From Escherichia phage Psq-1: a stretch of DNA of 44,183 nucleotides. Within the stretch, counting starts at the first letter, position 1. Each line of letters begins with the position of its first letter. Below are positions 2,683-43,426 of this stretch, one piece after another. Under the pieces are notes generated by a model, which worked only from the letters and a program-made list of their open reading frames with translations, was not told the origin of the DNA and searched no databases. A program made the translations under genes and the position numbers. Where the stretch lies: sequence record PQ595991.1. One strand, written 5' to 3'.

Positions 2683-3825
2683 ATGCACCCGCAAACTAAA
2701 ATTACCGACGAGCAATTGACCGCAGAAATTCAGGCAGGGACTACGGTTAAAGAGATTGCGAAGGAATACGGCATTGCACTTCGTAACGTCTACATGCGCA
2801 AAGCCCGCCTGTCGAAAAAGGGGATTGGTCACGGCAATGATGCCGTGATCCGTAAGCGCGTTGCCGATGGTTTTGGGGTTAAGCGCGTATCGGCCCTGGT
2901 GCGCGGCAATGGCGAAGAGGTCATGTCGTGGGTCATCACTGAGCAGGACAAGGAGCGCCAACTCGAAGCCATGCGCGCTGTTGTCGAGGGTATGAACAGC
3001 GAAATCACACCGGCAGCGCCAGTAAACGCCCCGCCAGTCCCGATCCAGGCGCTCGACTTGCTCAACCTGTACACAGTGTCCGACTTCCACTTGGGAATGC
3101 TGGCATGGGGCGAGGAGACTGGCGAAGATTGGGATATGGCGATTGCTGAAGACCTGTTCTACCGCTGGTTTGTCGAAGCCTTCGCCCGCGCACCGGACGC
3201 AGGCACTGCCGTTATCAATATCCTCGGAGATATGGCCCACTTTGACAGCCTCGACGCCGTCACACCCGCCAGCGGTCACGTACTGGACGCGGATACCCGC
3301 TACCAGAAACTGGTCCGCTATATGATTCGCATGGTGCGCAACGTGGTTGACCTGGCGCTGCAAAAACACCACAAAGTAAAACTGCTAATCGTTCAGGGTA
3401 ATCATGACGAATCGGGTATGATTTGGCTTGCTGAGATGTTCAATACCCTGTATGAGAACGAGCCGCGCGTCGATGTGGACACGTCCCCGGACGTCTACAA
3501 AATGGTGCAGCACGGTAAGACCACGCTATTTTTCCACCACGGGCACAAAGCGCGATTCGATGTTATCGAGCAGGTTATGATCTCTAAATTCAGACAGGCG
3601 TTCGGGTCGAGCGAATACAGCTACGCGCACGTAGGCCATTTGCACCACCAGAAGATTGTCGAGTCTCGCAACATGATTGTTGAACAGCACCGGACGCTCG
3701 CAGCGAAAGACGCCTACGCCAGTCGTGGCGGTTGGATGTCCGGTCGCAGCGCCAACGTCATTACCTACAGCGCCAACTACGGCGAAGTAGCGCGCTTAAC
3801 CATTAGCCCGGAAATGTTGAAATGA
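2683..3825 (+). CDS. HTH domain fused to calcineurin-like metallophosphoesterase (380 aa)
   Basis: N-terminal ~110 aa with HTH-like TVKEIAKEYGIALRNVYMRKARL. C-terminal domain has all five metallophosphoesterase motifs: DFHLG (DxH), ILGDMAHFD (GDxxD), VQGNHDE (GNHD/E), FFHHGH, HVGHLHH (GHxH). Confidence 0.6.
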   Translation: MHPQTKITDEQLTAEIQAGTTVKEIAKEYGIALRNVYMRKARLSKKGIGHGNDAVIRKRVADGFGVKRVSALVRGNGEEVMSWVITEQDKERQLEAMRAVVEGMNSEITPAAPVNAPPVPIQALDLLNLYTVSDFHLGMLAWGEETGEDWDMAIAEDLFYRWFVEAFARAPDAGTAVINILGDMAHFDSLDAVTPASGHVLDADTRYQKLVRYMIRMVRNVVDLALQKHHKVKLLIVQGNHDESGMIWLAEMFNTLYENEPRVDVDTSPDVYKMVQHGKTTLFFHHGHKARFDVIEQVMISKFRQAFGSSEYSYAHVGHLHHQKIVESRNMIVEQHRTLAAKDAYASRGGWMSGRSANVITYSANYGEVARLTISPEMLK

Positions 3826-9920: not shown

Positions 9921-10069
9921 TTTTGTGTCCTCATTGTTGGTGTGCAACCAATATAGCGCAACCAAGACAAGGATTGCAAGCTAATTTTGCGATTATTTTT
10001 ATCGCTGATAATATTAGAAGCGTGAAGTCGAGCGGGTGGCCTGCTCTGCCACAATCCCAGGGGGATAGC

Positions 10070-28932: not shown

Positions 28933-28961
28933 ACTATAGTGCAACCAACTATTGGTTGCAA
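28933..28961 (-). promoter_or_regulatory. sigma70-like promoter overlapping an inverted ATTGGTTGCA pair
   Basis: Minus strand reads TTGCAA (-35), 17-bp spacer, TATAGT (-10). The inverted repeat TGCAACCAA-CTA-TTGGTTGCA (28940-28960) overlaps it. Confidence 0.4.
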
Positions 28962-29419
28962 GTAAATTTTGCAACATTTATTGCGTAAATTTTCGGAACC
29001 AGATCGCTGCACGCCCGACGAATTGCCGCGATGTTCTTCTCGCAATCTTCAATGATGACCAGTTCCGACACGTCTGCGTAGCAGACCATTTTGAACACGG
29101 CGCACGCCTTAAACTCTGGCGGCGGGGTATCGTCCAGCATGTGGCGCATAAACAACCGGCCTGTCGGGAATACTTCCAGTTGCTCGGCGGTAGTCTCCCA
29201 ACATTCGCGCTGCCGGTTGGTCAGATAAGCGATCTCGAAGCCTTGCTCTTTATACATGCGCAACAGCGGCAGCATATCCATGTTCAGATCTTCGCGGACG
29301 TGCGCTTTGTGCCACTTCGCCCAAAAGGTGGATTTTGTTTTTATGCCCGGAACAAGGTCGGCGCGTGCATCACTCGAACCATTAATAACGCCATCAAGAT
29401 CACAAATCAGTAGTTTCAT
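28949..29419 (-). CDS. HAD-superfamily phosphatase (156 aa)
   Basis: HAD motif I CDLDGV near the N-terminus, motif II-like LTNR, motif IV-like IIED. Confidence 0.6.
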   Translation of the reverse strand: MKLLICDLDGVINGSSDARADLVPGIKTKSTFWAKWHKAHVREDLNMDMLPLLRMYKEQGFEIAYLTNRQRECWETTAEQLEVFPTGRLFMRHMLDDTPPPEFKACAVFKMVCYADVSELVIIEDCEKNIAAIRRACSDLVPKIYAINVAKFTCNQ

Positions 29420-29640
29420 TTTAAGCTCTCAATAAGGGTGTGTCGGGCGCTGCGCGCGGTGAAGGAGTTGCATACGAAATGGCAACGCTGAGTCATGACA
29501 AGCCAACCGGTGAGGTCAAGGCCCAGGATGTATTCGGGGCGAGACGCGCGCACCACACGATCGCGGCGTGGGTCAATACCGTAGTCTTTTTGCATTTGGT
29601 ATACTACCGCGGGGTCGCGGTCAACGATTAAGATATTCAA
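29416..29640 (-). CDS. hypothetical protein (74 aa)
   Basis: Track ORF with overlapping stop/start coupling to its neighbours. Confidence 0.35.
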   Translation of the reverse strand: MNILIVDRDPAVVYQMQKDYGIDPRRDRVVRASRPEYILGLDLTGWLVMTQRCHFVCNSFTARSARHTLIESLK

Positions 29641-30106
29641 GGAGTTCTCCTTCGCTCATTATTTCAATTTGTGCGCTGCCGATGGGTGGCGCTTCGTCAA
29701 ATATTATCAATTGCTGGCACTTGTTATTGCTCGGCCCGACTTCGCCGGTGACGGCGTGAATGAATCTAATCCGCCAGTCCAGAAGAATTATCATATTGGC
29801 AGTCTTCCGGGCCAACTTCGCCCACTTCGTCGACGTGTCTTGATTCAGCAGCATGACAGTCCGGCGACCGTGCGCTGCGCATTCCACCCACGGCAGCGGG
29901 TCGGAATACGGCGGATTGCACCACTTCCACCCTTTCAACTCTGCCCAGTCCACATCAAGCGCGCTGTGTTCCGCCGTGAAGTAACGCGGGAGCAGGTGGT
30001 TTGCATCGCTTGCCGCCATATCGTAACGGAATCGGTACTTCCGACGAAGCGGTTTAAATAGAGCTGGCGGCGTGCGCCAGCTATCCTTTTGCTCATTCTT
30101 CGTCAT
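29621..30106 (-). CDS. phage Dam-like DNA N6-adenine methyltransferase (161 aa)
   Basis: Motif WCNPPYSD (NPPY catalytic motif) and overall size typical of small phage Dam-family methylases. Confidence 0.7.
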   Translation of the reverse strand: MTKNEQKDSWRTPPALFKPLRRKYRFRYDMAASDANHLLPRYFTAEHSALDVDWAELKGWKWCNPPYSDPLPWVECAAHGRRTVMLLNQDTSTKWAKLARKTANMIILLDWRIRFIHAVTGEVGPSNNKCQQLIIFDEAPPIGSAQIEIMSEGELLEYLNR

Positions 30107-30545
30107 GGTCGGGGGCTATCGCGTAAAGGGCAATTTTCTTATCACTGTTTAACATGCGTAGTATGCGCTTTGACACCCCGGCGCTAAGCGCATACCGGTG
30201 TAATTCTTCGCGGCCCAGCCACCCTACCGGAACCAGATCTTTCCGGTCGATCTTAGACTGGCGACCTTTGGGGCGCACGTACTCCTCAGCCCGTTTGCAA
30301 TGCTCACGCAGCGCGTCGGCAGTGATGCGGTTTAGTGCAACGCTGGTGGTGTATCCGGTGCGCTGCATAATCCCCATCAATTCGAATAGCAGTTCGAAGC
30401 GCTCCTCTAACTCCTGGCGCACTTTCTTCTCCCCCTCATATAGCGACTGGTTGGCGTCCGCCAACGCGTTCGCACGTTTGGCCTGTTCACGGGCTTCGAG
30501 GCATTGCGCGGCCCAGTAATCTTTTTCTTCTTGTAAAATTTTCAT
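30093..30545 (-). CDS. hypothetical coiled-coil protein (150 aa)
   Basis: ATG 30545 with GGAGA upstream; charged helical composition. Confidence 0.45.
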   Translation of the reverse strand: MKILQEEKDYWAAQCLEAREQAKRANALADANQSLYEGEKKVRQELEERFELLFELMGIMQRTGYTTSVALNRITADALREHCKRAEEYVRPKGRQSKIDRKDLVPVGWLGREELHRYALSAGVSKRILRMLNSDKKIALYAIAPDHDEE

Positions 30546-30562
30546 CGTGTTGTCTCCAGATA

Positions 30563-30590
30563 TTAAAAAGGGCGTCCAACCGGACACCCT
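30563..30590 (-). terminator. rho-independent terminator or attenuator on the minus strand
   Basis: Minus strand reads AGGGTGTCC-GGTT-GGACGCCCT (one G-U pair) then TTTTTAAT; sits between two boxes and the next RBS. Confidence 0.45.
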
Positions 30591-30625
30591 CAATATAATG
30601 CAACCAATCTAGTTACGCAACCAAT

Positions 30626-30949
30626 TTATGCGTAGAAGTTCGGGTCGCGTGCAACGTCTACCAAATAAAGATTGCTCATGCGGTTGCCGTAGTGCCCTGG
30701 TGTGCGCTGGCGGCACACAACGGCGAAGCCGGGAGGGATTATATTGCCCGTCTCAATAATCCACGCTACGCGCGCGCCAGATAGCGTCTTGCCGTTGTAT
30801 TCGATGCGTGTTCCGCCATCGGCAGTGTTAAGGTTGCCAATCTTGCAGCCTGTGGACTTCAGGCGAATGACGCCGGTCTTGCTGTCGTAGGAAAAAAGCT
30901 GATTGGTCATTGCCACTGAAAAGTCGATGGCGTCGAATGCAGTATTCAT
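30626..30949 (-). CDS. HNH_3-like (homing-endonuclease-like) domain protein, possibly degenerate (107 aa)
   Basis: ARVAWIIETGNIIPPGFAVVCRQRTPGHYGNRMSNLYLV resembles the HRLVW...G.IP.G..VDH.NG..DNR..NL pattern, but the usual catalytic His is replaced (VVCRQ). Confidence 0.35.
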   Translation of the reverse strand: MNTAFDAIDFSVAMTNQLFSYDSKTGVIRLKSTGCKIGNLNTADGGTRIEYNGKTLSGARVAWIIETGNIIPPGFAVVCRQRTPGHYGNRMSNLYLVDVARDPNFYA

Positions 30950-31641
30950 TTTAAATTTTCCTCGTTAACCGCTATCGCGAAGCCGCGCGGGGTGAGCGAC
31001 CTGATTAATTTGGTGCGGGCAGATTTGCCTCCGAGGCGACTATACTGCTTCGAGTACCCTTTTTCAACGAAAACAGGTTTCTTCTCTGGCATACGGAAGC
31101 CGTTGCCGGTCCATAAGCAGGTCATCTTCGGATATGAATCGCGGGCGTTGATGTATTCCGGGAAGAGCGGGTGTACGTCATCCTCCGGCAGATATCCGCC
31201 ATACTCCCACGGGTCAAACGAGTGGTCCGGCTTACGCCATTGAGTTGATAGCACGCTGCGCGGATTCTCAATCATATACGGCACTTCAAAGAAATCACCC
31301 AGGTAAGCGGCGATCTTCGCGGTGCGCACCGCCTTAAGCTGGAAGGCAGGGTCGCGGGCGCGTTTGCGCGGGAAAGCTGGCGCACCGCTAACCGCCAGGT
31401 CCGTACACGGCGGGAATGCATAAATGATATCCGGCGTACCGAAATCGCCATTCATCGCGCGGTCTACAAAGTCCAGATCGATAAACTCATTACGATAGCG
31501 GATACCGCGCCCATAAATCCGGTAGTCCAGGTACGACCCGTGATCGGCTTCGGAGTAGTTGAAGCAATAACATTTATGCCCCATCTCGGCAGCACGCTCA
31601 ATCATCAAGCCGCTGCCGTCAAACAATGACCAAATTATCAT
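30946..31641 (-). CDS. compact C5-cytosine DNA methyltransferase-like protein (231 aa)
   Basis: Motif I-like SLFDGSG, PC motif AFPPC, ENV-like IENP, possible motif X GFAIAVNE; far shorter than canonical C5 methylases. Confidence 0.45.
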   Translation of the reverse strand: MIIWSLFDGSGLMIERAAEMGHKCYCFNYSEADHGSYLDYRIYGRGIRYRNEFIDLDFVDRAMNGDFGTPDIIYAFPPCTDLAVSGAPAFPRKRARDPAFQLKAVRTAKIAAYLGDFFEVPYMIENPRSVLSTQWRKPDHSFDPWEYGGYLPEDDVHPLFPEYINARDSYPKMTCLWTGNGFRMPEKKPVFVEKGYSKQYSRLGGKSARTKLIRSLTPRGFAIAVNEENLK

Positions 31642-33062
31642 TTGCGCGCCTTTTTAGCTTTCATGTATTCCATCAGGTCATCCTGTATATCTCGCTTACT
31701 GTCGCGACGCTCTGCGACTAGCTCATCCAGTGTGCCGCGCGCCTGGATAATGTAGACGAATACCGGTCGAGGGTGTCCGGCCTGCATCTGGCGAACCGGC
31801 CCGATACGCTCCACAATCTGCGAAAAATGCTCATAGTTCCAGGTGTCGGAGAAGATGGCAAGGTGGTGTCCGCCGTCCTGCAAGTTAAGGCCGTGGCCTG
31901 CCGATGCCGGGTGTGCAAACATGATGGGGATCTCGCCCCTGTTCCACGCTTCCATATCCTTATTGCCCTGCTTACCCTTACCCAACGAGACGCCGTGGGG
32001 AAATTTCTTCTTAAGACGTGCCAGGTCATGCTTATACTGATACGCAACGAGCAACGGCGCGCCGTTCAACTCCTCCACGATACTTTCCAGCGCGTCCAGT
32101 TTGGCGTCGTGAATCTTCACCCACTCGTCGGTCCGTTCGCCGTCTTCGTCCACCTTATACACAGCGCCGGAAGCAAGCTGAAGGCACTTAATTGTCTTCG
32201 ATGCCGCGTTCGCCGCTTCCACAGTCCCGCTTTCCAGTTCGGCAAATAGCTCGCTTTCAAACTGGTCGTAAATCTTGCGGGCTTTCTTCGGCAGGTCCAC
32301 AACAACCGGCGTATAGATTGGCTTGTCGCACCCGAAGTATTCAGCCGCGTCAACGGTGAGGGATACGTCAGACAGGCGTTGTTGGATCTCCTTCTCGGAG
32401 TTCTTTAGCGGGGCGTGCTGCATAGTGAAGCTGCCAGGCTTAACAGGCTTGCTAATAAACCAGCGGTCTGTGAATGCCTTATAACTACTGCCGAGGCGTT
32501 CGCCACCGTCGACAAACCACGTCTGACCCCATAGGTCTTTCAGTCCGTTTGGTGCGGGTGTGCCGGTAAGGTTAATCCAGCGCTTGACGCGCTTATGTGC
32601 GATCGCCGCCAGGGCGCGGGCGCGCTTACTTCCCTGCTTGCTTCTATATCCTTTCAGCTTAGTGGATTCATCGGCAACAACTACCGTAAAGGGCCACTCG
32701 TCGCCGCAATACTCGACAAGCCACTCAACCACATCATAGTTAACACAAACCACGTTAGCGTCGCTCTCAAGCGCAGCGATGCGGTCCTTCTCCGACCCGG
32801 TGCCGTCTACTACCAGCAGGGCGGGGAAGCGCCATTTTTCTTGTTCCGGGGGCCATGTGCCCGATGCAACGCGCAGCGGGGCAAGCACCAGTACGCGGTC
32901 CTCCTGGTTGGACAGGATGCCGGTCTGGAACATTTTATTCAGCGCCCACATGGTCGCGCCGGTTTTACCCGACCCCATTGTCGCCCATATATTGCATCGC
33001 TTATGCTTGAGGATGAACGCGGTTATCAACTTCTGATATTCGCGACGTCGGAAACGTGCCAT
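31638..33062 (-). CDS. SNF2-family DEAD-like helicase
   Basis: ATG 33062; Walker A ATMGSGKT, DExx box VVVADEST, motif III LTGTPAPN. Confidence 0.8.
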   Translation of the reverse strand: MARFRRREYQKLITAFILKHKRCNIWATMGSGKTGATMWALNKMFQTGILSNQEDRVLVLAPLRVASGTWPPEQEKWRFPALLVVDGTGSEKDRIAALESDANVVCVNYDVVEWLVEYCGDEWPFTVVVADESTKLKGYRSKQGSKRARALAAIAHKRVKRWINLTGTPAPNGLKDLWGQTWFVDGGERLGSSYKAFTDRWFISKPVKPGSFTMQHAPLKNSEKEIQQRLSDVSLTVDAAEYFGCDKPIYTPVVVDLPKKARKIYDQFESELFAELESGTVEAANAASKTIKCLQLASGAVYKVDEDGERTDEWVKIHDAKLDALESIVEELNGAPLLVAYQYKHDLARLKKKFPHGVSLGKGKQGNKDMEAWNRGEIPIMFAHPASAGHGLNLQDGGHHLAIFSDTWNYEHFSQIVERIGPVRQMQAGHPRPVFVYIIQARGTLDELVAERRDSKRDIQDDLMEYMKAKKARK

Positions 33063-33066
33063 ATCT

Positions 33067-33291
33067 TTATTCCGCCTTTTTCCAGACTTCGGTTTCACTG
33101 TTCCAGTTCCTTTTTGTGGCGTCGTAGTTGGTGCGGTGCCCGATGTGCACACCCGTCGCCCGGAAGCTCTTAAATTTTTGCCAGCACACCGTCAACGGCA
33201 GCGGGTACTTCATGCCCGCGATAAACCATACGCGATCGCCTGGTTTGCATTCGCCCAGTGTGGTGAGTCGGTAGCGTTCTTTCATCGTCAT
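33067..33291 (-). CDS. hypothetical protein (74 aa)
   Basis: ATG 33291 with GGGAGA upstream; directly downstream of a minus-strand terminator. Confidence 0.35.
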   Translation of the reverse strand: MTMKERYRLTTLGECKPGDRVWFIAGMKYPLPLTVCWQKFKSFRATGVHIGHRTNYDATKRNWNSETEVWKKAE

Positions 33292-33534: not shown

Positions 33535-33563
33535 ACTATACTGTTAAGCGACCAATTCAGCAA
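33535..33563 (-). promoter_or_regulatory. candidate sigma70 promoter overlapping an ATTGGTTGC box
   Basis: Minus strand reads TTGCTG (-35, inside TTATTGGTTGCTG), 17-bp spacer, TATAGT (-10). Confidence 0.35.
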
Positions 33564-33822
33564 CCAATAAATCACAGTCGGCTATGTTGTCTATAACGCG
33601 AACGTCCGCACCGCGGCGGGCCATTCGCTCATGTTCTCGTACCTGGTGCGGCTTTGGTTTACCGCCTGGGCGCTTCACTTCGACGAAAACTATCTTGCCG
33701 TTGATGATGATTATCAGGTCGGGCGCTCCTGCGCGCCCCTCCCATGCCACTTTACGGCAGAATCCGCCGACGGCTTTCACCCTCTTCATAAGGTAACTTT
33801 GGATCTTGCCTTCTGGTGTCAT
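33544..33822 (-). CDS. VRR-NUC domain nuclease (92 aa)
   Basis: APDLIIIINGKIVFVEVKRPGGKPKPHQ matches the PD-(D/E)XK core of VRR-NUC proteins. Confidence 0.7.
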   Translation of the reverse strand: MTPEGKIQSYLMKRVKAVGGFCRKVAWEGRAGAPDLIIIINGKIVFVEVKRPGGKPKPHQVREHERMARRGADVRVIDNIADCDLLVAELVA

Positions 33823-37068: not shown

Positions 37069-37158
37069 TTTCAAATTCCTCATTTTCACATGTATCGGGG
37101 TTATTGTGAGCCACCCCGTTCGGCTTGGTTGCTAATCTACTTGGTTGCGCCTAAGCGG

Positions 37159-42955: not shown

Positions 42956-43049
42956 ATTTTGCGCGCATTGGTTGCCATTTTGAGTGTTTTTAGCTGGTCG
43001 CATTGGTTGCCGTGTAGTGTAAAAATATTGAATAGTTATGCAATAAAAC

Positions 43050-43222: not shown

Positions 43223-43370
43223 AAATCCGGGATTGCAAAATACACGGCAGCACATTGTAAATTGCGGTCGTCGCGGAACTAGGCAACCAATGCGGGATGC
43301 AGAACGTGGTGTGAAAAATGCAGTCACAGCAGATAGCGATCAACTTTTTCATACGCGTGATTAATATTGG

Positions 43371-43399
43371 TTGCATTCACCTCGGCGCCTTGCTATATT
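43371..43399 (+). promoter_or_regulatory. sigma70-like promoter built from two ATTGGTTGCA boxes
   Basis: -35 TTGCAT (43371-43376), 17-bp spacer, -10 TATATT (43394-43399). Confidence 0.4.
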
Positions 43400-43426
43400 G
43401 GTTGCACACCAACAGGAGGGCGGAAC

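Follow-up and report, generated by a model that had tools for sequence, protein, structure and literature searches.

A short Dcm-like C5-methyltransferase gene and an independent, conserved HNH-like gene without catalytic residues in the Dhillonvirus phage Psq-1

The genome of Escherichia phage Psq-1 (PQ595991.1) was analyzed as a single stretch of 44,183 nucleotides (nt), which is referred to as the window. It represents a Dhillonvirus (HK578-like coliphage) and harbors two adjacent open reading frames (ORFs), one for a C5-methylase-like protein of 231 amino acids (aa) and one for a 107-aa protein with a degenerate HNH motif (Table 1). Our comparative analysis documents that the methylase and the HNH-like protein are not an obligate pair, but two independent genes side by side. 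The joint reading that we favor, with a probability of roughly 0.7, is that of a stand-alone, active methylase next to an independent, domesticated remnant of an HNH nuclease, which no longer cuts but most likely binds DNA. Fold, motifs, family membership, selection and distribution were established directly. The methylase adds one more member to a known family with experimental backing, and related phages already have it annotated as such, and the conserved nuclease-dead HNH protein, an undescribed but modest variant, is the only new point of the analysis. The original prediction, made from the letters of the sequence, had proposed either a minimal methylase with a DNA-binding specificity partner or a decayed homing module. 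Both ORFs, their ATGA overlap and all motifs quoted at that time were recovered at their places, but neither of the two scenarios was retained in its initial form.

Family and fold of the methylase

The methylase matches PHROG 757 ("DNA methyltransferase") nearly from end to end (E=2e-82; residues 1-229 aligned to positions 15-218 of a profile of length 247). Its relatives comprise 2,873 clusters at 90% identity and 827 representatives at 50%, and the family is present in 1,511 of 50,697 phage records, ranging from Dhillonvirus and Drexlerviridae to rV5/PVP-SE1-like myoviruses, Klebsiella and Salmonella siphoviruses, and others. The protein had initially been regarded as unusually short. This holds true in comparison with canonical enzymes, since M.HhaI has 327 aa and the DNMT3 catalytic domains of the matched PDB chains have 273-291 aa, but it does not apply within its own family, whose median length is 232-234 aa and in which 97% of the closest 120 clusters range from 200 to 270 aa. 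The same is true for the Thr that follows the Pro-Cys motif in place of Gln. It is present, but among the 231 members with 200 aa or more that were checked, 187 share it and 208 contain EN-P, thus indicating that both are family signatures rather than oddities.

The assignment as a C5-methylase-like protein is corroborated by an intact motif I, catalytic Cys and ENV-type Glu, whose invariance was assessed across 115 family members (Table 1). With respect to the motif VIII signature Q-x-R-x-R, the methylase contains no R-x-R; most of the family has K-K and the window protein K-M before strand 7. The residue after the invariant Lys172 is Met in the window, Leu in most Dhillonviruses and Lys elsewhere, in the more divergent members. 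Based on its position and the fold, the segment RSLTPRGFA would represent motif X. A comparison of the family profile with the canonical methylase of Edwardsiella phage eiAU by hhalign retrieved only a spurious match of 28 columns with a probability of 1%, and the correspondences of motifs VIII to X are hence based on fold and position rather than on aligned sequences. The Pfam family PF00145 gives weak or sub-threshold matches in 68 of 115 relatives (best E=1.3e-6). Longer relatives of 290-450 aa were inspected for a fused partner domain, and no Pfam domain was detected in them.

An AlphaFold2 model built on 115 relatives (predicted local distance difference test score [pLDDT] 90.4, predicted template modeling score [pTM] 0.89) exhibits a seven-stranded Rossmann-type core, i.e., the fold of a C5-methylase catalytic domain. 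All of its top 34 Foldseek matches are catalytic domains of DNMT3A/B/C or the prophage C5 methyltransferase 3g7u. Structure prediction, which had been suggested as a check for both ORFs, points to C5 DNA methylases for the first and to I-HmuI for the second. In the methylase model, motif I is located between a strand (residues 2-6) and a helix (12-19), a conserved 22-residue loop (151-173) precedes strand 7, and the protein ends with a helix at residues 219-229. The putative target-recognition region, located between strand 7 and the motif X-like segment, comprises about 35 residues (180-213) and includes two short helices; a separate target-recognition domain is absent from the model. Even DNMT3, the canonical C5 enzyme with the smallest recognition domain, is larger. 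Given that almost no recognition domain is left, the methylase would have to read DNA with conserved loops, possibly in an oligomeric form as DNMT3 does. The median ratio of nonsynonymous to synonymous substitutions (dN/dS) in 20 Dhillonvirus-like loci is 0.03 and equals that of the adjacent helicase gene.

Conservation of an HNH-like protein without catalytic residues

The 107-aa protein matches PHROG 99 ("HNH endonuclease"; E=6.7e-16), and its model, predicted with high confidence, resembles I-HmuI. Neither HNH_3 (PF13392) nor any other Pfam or NCBIfam entry was matched at E<=1 or E<=10, and the PDB yielded no useful match by sequence or by profile. The recognizable motifs are ARVAW (residues 59-63), PPG (72-74), VVCRQ (77-81), NR (89-90) and NL (93-94). 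A bona fide comparator is p17 of Xop411, which is recognized by Pfam HNH_3 at E=2.4e-15. The anchors (A/H)R(V/L)AW and NR..NL of the two proteins align without a gap between them, and the Asp-His of p17 falls on Arg80-Gln81. The earlier observation of an HNH_3-like protein that lacks the catalytic His is therefore supported. Asp-His is lost in all ten clusters of the family, and gp31 of phage eiAU has Ile-Asp there. The only histidine of the window protein, His86, is located three residues before the Asn of "NR", compared with eight in HNH_3.

In I-HmuI-type enzymes the metal-binding Asn sits on an alpha-helix, about nine residues after "NL". The HNH-like protein ends 14 residues past the "NL" Asn (N93), this stretch contains Pro103, and the model has no helix beyond residue 98, so that the metal-binding helix is probably absent. 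Position 102 is an Asp that is followed by Pro-Asn, the pLDDT drops to 71 and the chain terminates at residue 107. An additional C-terminal DNA-binding domain (AP2, NUMOD or helix-turn-helix) is missing, whereas the comparators of 169-174 aa carry AP2 or helix-turn-helix tails.

The family is small and highly conserved. It comprises ten clusters among 5.8 billion proteins, profile search included, and occurs in 161 phage records, namely, 157 Dhillonvirus-like genomes and four Edwardsiella eiAU-type phages. The sequence RQRTPGHYGNRxxNL is common to the family and N93-L94 are invariant. In 21 loci the median dN/dS is 0.08 (dS 0.63), a tighter constraint than that on the neighboring genes for the Dam methylase (0.10) and the 150-166-aa protein p166 (0.19), and the ORF is intact with 105-107 aa in 20 of the 21 loci, down to 55% identity. 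The low dN/dS and the conserved length document that the gene is clearly functional and not decaying. The idea of a decayed homing module was accordingly right about the catalytically degenerate fold of a homing endonuclease, but not about ongoing decay. In the record of SSL-2009a (L024, about 3240-3320), the ORF is frameshifted after residue 72, reflecting either a sequencing error or a real inactivation.

We propose that the protein descends from an HNH homing endonuclease of the I-HmuI type and is a domesticated remnant of it. The N-terminal beta-sheet and two strands of the beta-beta-alpha-metal core would have been kept, and the general base (Asp-His), the helix for metal binding and the DNA-binding domain at the C-terminus would have been lost. 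Its most likely role is that of a non-cutting DNA-binding protein that should act without any need of the methylase. Our literature search on the Dhillonvirus gene found no paper that discusses it.

A more specific version of this scenario is possible, but we consider it unlikely. It assumes that the dead HNH protein is a sequence-specific DNA-binding factor of Dhillonvirus and eiAU-like phages, for example at the ATTGGTTGC repeats next to its own stop codon (Table 1), or a blocker of the former homing site against related active endonucleases; separately, the near-absent recognition domain of the methylase would entail a relaxed or structure-dependent specificity for hairpins or single-stranded DNA such as the DNA of retrons. 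The ATTGGTTGC pair, part of a family of dispersed motifs close to promoters, is kept in every Dhillonvirus-like locus fetched, including the most divergent ones, and binding of the protein to this pair or to the related TTGGTTGC repeats described below is speculation.

Still less probable is a nuclease or nickase, of the homing or mismatch type, that operates with a non-canonical site composed of His86, Asn93, Asp98 and Asp102/Asn104. H86, N93 and D98 are invariant, D102-P103 are nearly so, and purifying selection is strong. The gene order, a methylase followed by a small overlapping gene, is moreover reminiscent of dcm-vsr of E. coli, an overlapping pair whose second gene encodes the mismatch endonuclease Vsr. 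CTTGG/CCAAG is depleted to 0.35 of the expectation (maximal-order Markov model, whole window), which resembles a signature of very-short-patch repair. But this depletion of CTWGG can be explained by the host's own Vsr, and the fold of Vsr is unrelated to HNH. The general-base His and its adjacent Asp are replaced in every member, His86 cannot fill the same place of the hairpin with a distance of three instead of eight residues, and the helix for the metal-binding Asn is probably missing, since the chain ends 14 residues after N93 and contains Pro103. A functional equivalent of dcm-vsr was consequently rejected.

Proposed activity and role of the methylase

The window methylase belongs to a family with a characterized, autonomous member that forms 5-methylcytosine (5mC). 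It is 54% identical over the full length to the 711-bp-encoded Dcm of phage KarlJaspers (BLASTP E=1e-86). In K42, which is 95% related to KarlJaspers/Bas06, the 711-bp "Dcm" gene has been reported as the trigger of retron Ec86 (10.1101/2023.08.16.553469, preprint). Expression of K42 Dcm alone from pBAD raised the 5mC content of the multicopy single-stranded DNA (msDNA) of the retron, as measured by liquid chromatography coupled to mass spectrometry (LC-MS), and no such rise was seen with a C82A/E128A/K175A/K176A mutant; the phage escapes from retron Ec86 by dcm-disrupting mutations, and mutation of the CCTGG site of the msDNA abolishes defence (10.1101/2023.08.16.553469). The authors superposed an AlphaFold model of K42 Dcm on DNMT3A and equated the Lys that corresponds to Lys172 of the window protein with the DNMT3A arginines (10.1101/2023.08.16.553469). 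C82, E128 and K175 of the K42/KarlJaspers protein align with C79, E125 and K172 of the window protein, and K176 with Met173.

By analogy, we infer that the window protein works on its own as an active orphan enzyme of the short "Dcm-like" phage family, which methylates DNA at C5 of cytosine and depends on S-adenosylmethionine (SAM), and that its sequence specificity is probably similar. Cys79 would attack C6 of a flipped-out cytosine, Glu125 of the ENP motif would protonate N3, and the methyl group would move to the cytosine from SAM bound at FDGSG. A likely role is the pre-methylation of phage DNA at CCWGG-type sites, which would blunt cytosine-sensitive restriction, presumably at the cost of being sensed by retron Ec86/Eco1-type defences. 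CCWGG is present at 156 sites in the genome, i.e., 0.99 of the expectation of a maximal-order Markov model and 2.3-fold above dinucleotide shuffles; the agreement with the Markov model means that the site is not avoided, and nothing more. Under the same model, GAATTC has four occurrences over both strands (two EcoRI sites) compared with 14.2 expected (0.28), and GGCC reaches 0.66.

There is only a slight chance that the 231-aa protein is something other than a simple 5mC methylase, i.e., that it transfers another group such as carboxymethyl from carboxy-SAM (Cx-SAM), acts on RNA or single-stranded DNA, or is inert. The window protein has no Pfam match, and the substrate methylated by the K42 enzyme was msDNA, with only low 5mC in the empty-vector and inactive-mutant controls (MG1655). 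However, LC-MS identified 5mC as the product of this 54%-identical enzyme, the catalytic motifs are all invariant and under strong selection, and the neighboring genes examined do not include a Cx-SAM synthase (CmoA-like) gene.

Independence of the two genes

The distribution of the two genes is different. Records with a member of the methylase family outnumber those with the HNH-like one about tenfold (1,511 versus 161), and more than 1,300 phage records contain the methylase without the HNH-like gene. One example is KarlJaspers, whose Dcm has no HNH-like neighbor. The reverse situation is found in Dhillonviruses. In Shigella phage EP23 an intact HNH-like ORF of 105 aa starts two bases past the stop codon of the helicase gene, with no methylase gene left (L021, 2993-2995). 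Dru_SM5 shows the same contiguous junction between helicase and HNH-like ORF, and only about 150-190 bp are left between these two flanks in Opt212, Teewinot and Zar3M. The HNH-like ORF is thus intact in at least five Dhillonviruses whose methylase gene is lost or truncated, and the deletion end-points differ. The presence of the methylase in the divergent outgroups L008, L009 and L025 is indicative of repeated secondary losses with retention of the HNH-like gene. Sensing by the retron would explain the loss of the methylase in some Dhillonviruses, and its repetition is in line with counter-selection by defences that sense the methylase, for example retron Ec86.

Further evidence is provided by phage eiAU, whose HNH-like homologue is located directly upstream of a different, canonical 330-aa methylase of the PF00145 type, on the opposite side compared with the window. 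The constant element of the locus is the order helicase - HNH-like gene ... Dam, with C5 methylases of two families on either side. The ATGA overlap between methylase and HNH-like gene, which had been taken as a sign of coupling, is present, but a second ATGA connects the helicase with the methylase gene (Table 1), showing that coupling of this type extends over the gene block and does not single out these two genes.

These findings bear on the proposal of a minimal methylase with a specificity partner, i.e., a two-subunit enzyme in which the 107-aa protein supplies target recognition as in the split methylase M.AquI. The recognition region of about 35 residues is indeed tiny, an ATGA overlap joins the genes, the pair persists in loci with only about 55-60% identity, and the eiAU homologue likewise adjoins a C5 methylase. 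Nevertheless, the proposal is very improbable and was rejected: relatives of the methylase occur without the partner in the records mentioned above, the K42 orthologue methylates alone, the HNH-like ORF outlives the methylase in Dhillonviruses, and the 231-aa protein already contains the motif X-like helix, while the predicted HNH fold of the 107-aa protein lacks motifs IX-X. A functionless, decaying pseudogene of a dead homing endonuclease deserves hardly any credit, because the lost catalytic residues, the missing C-terminal DNA-binding domain and the frameshifted SSL-2009a record are outweighed by a dN/dS below those of Dam and p166, by intact ORFs in loci that are partly only 55-60% identical, and by the persistence of the gene where the adjacent methylase is deleted.

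Several points weigh against the combination of a stand-alone active methylase and a domesticated nuclease-dead HNH remnant. The window methylase has no match in Pfam (E<=1) or NCBIfam, none in the PDB by sequence, and no useful one there by profile search. The evidence for its activity and specificity comes from a preprint on a protein with 54% identity, the second Lys mutated in the K42 control is Met in the window and Leu in most Dhillonviruses, and the CCWGG specificity was assumed from E. coli Dcm with support only from the mutated msDNA site (10.1101/2023.08.16.553469). The conservation of H86, D98 and the C-terminal D102-P-N104 makes a non-canonical catalytic site of the HNH-like protein conceivable. 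Finally, adjacency to a C5 methylase is conserved in Dhillonvirus and eiAU and could reflect a functional link, although this residual argument rests on two related lineages with conserved synteny.

Gene neighborhood

The 3.6 kb around the locus are 91-93% identical to more than 100 Dhillonvirus genomes, among them HK578, SSL-2009a and the BASEL phages Bas14-18. The pair of methylase and HNH-like gene is also found in about 155 GenBank phages; in relatives the first is annotated as "Dcm-like C5 cytosine methyltransferase" and the second as "putative (HNH) homing endonuclease". The gene order is DNA polymerase I ... SNF2 helicase - methylase - HNH-like gene - small variable gene(s) - Dam methylase - Ksap1 - phosphatase. 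The helicase ORF could be extended to position 33152, and a DNA helicase of 1425 nt is annotated in relatives. Co-transcription of helicase, methylase and HNH-like gene is probable, and they may belong to an early DNA-metabolism operon.

Table 1. Features of the methylase/HNH-like locus in the Psq-1 window
Feature	Position	Strand	Basis or remark
DNA helicase of the SNF2 family, leading gene of the compact block	31638..33062	-	Pfam SNF2-rel_dom E=3e-11; PHROG 62 E=4.6e-156
ATGA stop/start overlap, SNF2 helicase/methylase	31638..31641	-	Read from sequence
Short Dcm-like orphan C5-cytosine DNA methyltransferase (predicted), 231 aa	30946..31641	-	ORF list, PHROG 757
Motif I, FDGSG, residues 7-11, SAM-binding loop after strand 1	31609..31623	-	F7, S10, G11 invariant, G9 nearly
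Motif IV, FPPC, residues 76-79, Cys79 as catalytic nucleophile, then Thr80	31405..31416	-	P77, P78, C79 invariant
Motif VI, ENP, residues 125-127, end of strand 5	31261..31269	-	E125, N126, P127 invariant
Lys172, basic residue before strand 7, presumably in place of the motif VIII arginines	31126..31128	-	Family-invariant
Motif X-like RSLTPRGFA, residues 214-222, leading into the C-terminal helix	30976..31002	-	R214, S215, P218, R219 invariant
ATGA stop/start overlap, methylase/HNH-like ORF	30946..30949	-	Read from sequence
Nuclease-dead I-HmuI-like HNH-fold protein (predicted), 107 aa	30626..30949	-	ORF list, PHROG 99
Degenerate HNH core, C79-RQRTPGHYGNRMSN-L94; R80-Q81 at the Asp-His position, N93 as "NL" Asn	30668..30715	-	Alignment with Xop411 p17
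Two direct copies of ATTGGTTGC, 17 nt apart, starting 1 nt past the stop codon of the HNH-like ORF and lying upstream of the following gene	30600..30625	-	Sequence comparison
Terminator-like hairpin, 35 nt 3' of the HNH-like stop codon	30568..30591	-	10-bp stem, 6 GC pairs, then TTTAATATCT; consensus match only
Dam-type N6-adenine methyltransferase, second orphan methylase of the module	29621..30106	-	Pfam PF05869 E=3.4e-36

The p166 gene on the minus strand 3' of the HNH-like gene (30093-30593) shows a match to PHROG 10530 labeled "DNA ligase", and the equivalent of SECphi18 is annotated likewise. This label is doubtful, as the 150-166-aa protein is without a Pfam match and far too small for a ligase. 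The gene is variable, with no orthologue in L008, L009, L010 and L025, and Oekolampad contains an extra ORF of 243 nt at its position. Between Dam and the phosphatase, a 74-aa ORF (29416-29640, minus strand) is 91% identical to the SECphi18 gene at the described position of Ksap1, a protein of Dhillonvirus reported to bind the KpAvs2 defence and to activate it (PMC11564622). The Ksap1-like copy of the window has Val30, one of the three residues altered in a natural escape variant (K30V). Near-identical Dhillonvirus sequences (91-95%) are also present in records labeled with hosts other than Escherichia, namely, MG065648.1 ("Campylobacter phage A144"), OQ221563.1 ("Acinetobacter phage NJ01") and NC_013600.1 ("Sodalis phage SO-1"); contaminants or mis-assignments may account for part of these host labels, in particular for Campylobacter and Acinetobacter.

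The octamer TTGGTTGC occurs 19 times in the window compared with 1.8 +/- 1.3 expected occurrences. Its dispersed form (A/C/G)TTGGTTGC is located at 2489-2519, 9944-9965, 26054, 28941-28959, 30600-30625, 33548-33567, 37125-37148, 40027, 42968-43010, 43283 and 43367-43405. The copies are mostly paired with a distance of 11-35 nt, oriented toward gene starts and 30-70 nt upstream of them, and one pair (28941/28952) forms an inverted repeat. A pair is also found in an intergenic region of eiAU (L003, 525/557), and KarlJaspers has only unpaired copies. Judging from this arrangement, the motif is probably a lineage-specific phage promoter or operator element.

Implications

The labels "HNH endonuclease" and "homing endonuclease" for the 107-aa gene probably indicate a wrong function, since the protein, although strongly conserved, should be unable to cut by the HNH mechanism. 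It provides a small, tractable case of a homing endonuclease that has turned into something else. The methylase probably triggers retron Ec86/Eco1-type defences and probably shields the phage from cytosine-sensitive restriction, and its presence or repeated loss in Dhillonvirus may predict host range and defence sensitivity of these common therapy and BASEL-type phages. The practical consequences are modest and the current understanding of C5 methylases is not challenged.

Comparison with known systems

The closest characterized equivalent is the Dcm of KarlJaspers/K42 (Drexlerviridae), which has 236 aa compared with 231 aa in the window. PPCTDLA and MIENP are identical, both are orphan phage enzymes, and the models of both superpose on DNMT3. 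The differences are the phage lineage and the gene neighborhood, and activity and specificity were tested for K42 only. The catalytic domains of DNMT3A and DNMT3B (PDB 6u8p, 4u7t, 6f57) share just 15-16% identity with the phage methylase, which is about 40-60 residues shorter and contains the conserved 22-residue insert (151-173); the DNMT3 enzymes are eukaryotic, form oligomers with regulatory domains and target CpG. Compared with the canonical PF00145 enzymes M.HhaI, M.HaeIII and E. coli Dcm, the phage methylase is about 100-240 aa shorter, the recognition domain between motifs VIII and IX is almost absent, and Lys-(Lys/Leu/Met) appears to take the place of the Arg-x-Arg of motif VIII.

The structural reference of the HNH-like protein is I-HmuI of Bacillus phage SPO1 (PDB 1u3e). 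It has 174 instead of 107 aa, Asp-His instead of Arg-Gln, and a metal-binding helix that is probably absent from the window protein, which also lacks the C-terminal minor-groove helices and the helix-turn-helix domain of I-HmuI. The only homologue outside Dhillonvirus-like phages is gp31 of the Edwardsiella phages eiAU/eiDWF with about 38-40% identity. It shares the GHY..R..NL core without Asp-His and is located between the genes for an SNF2 helicase and a methylase, but it carries an N-terminal extension of 45-75 residues with a weak match to the NUMOD-like part of I-HmuI (L003, 3360-4835), and it is positioned upstream of a canonical methylase gene, whereas the HNH-like gene of the window lies downstream of a short one.

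The gene layout finally resembles that of M.AquI, a split C5 methylase whose beta subunit carries motifs IX-X, and of dcm-vsr, in so far as a methylase gene is followed by a small overlapping second gene. Unlike the beta subunit of M.AquI and Vsr, the 107-aa protein has a predicted HNH fold devoid of catalytic residues, and the methylase at its side is a complete enzyme, autonomous in its relatives.

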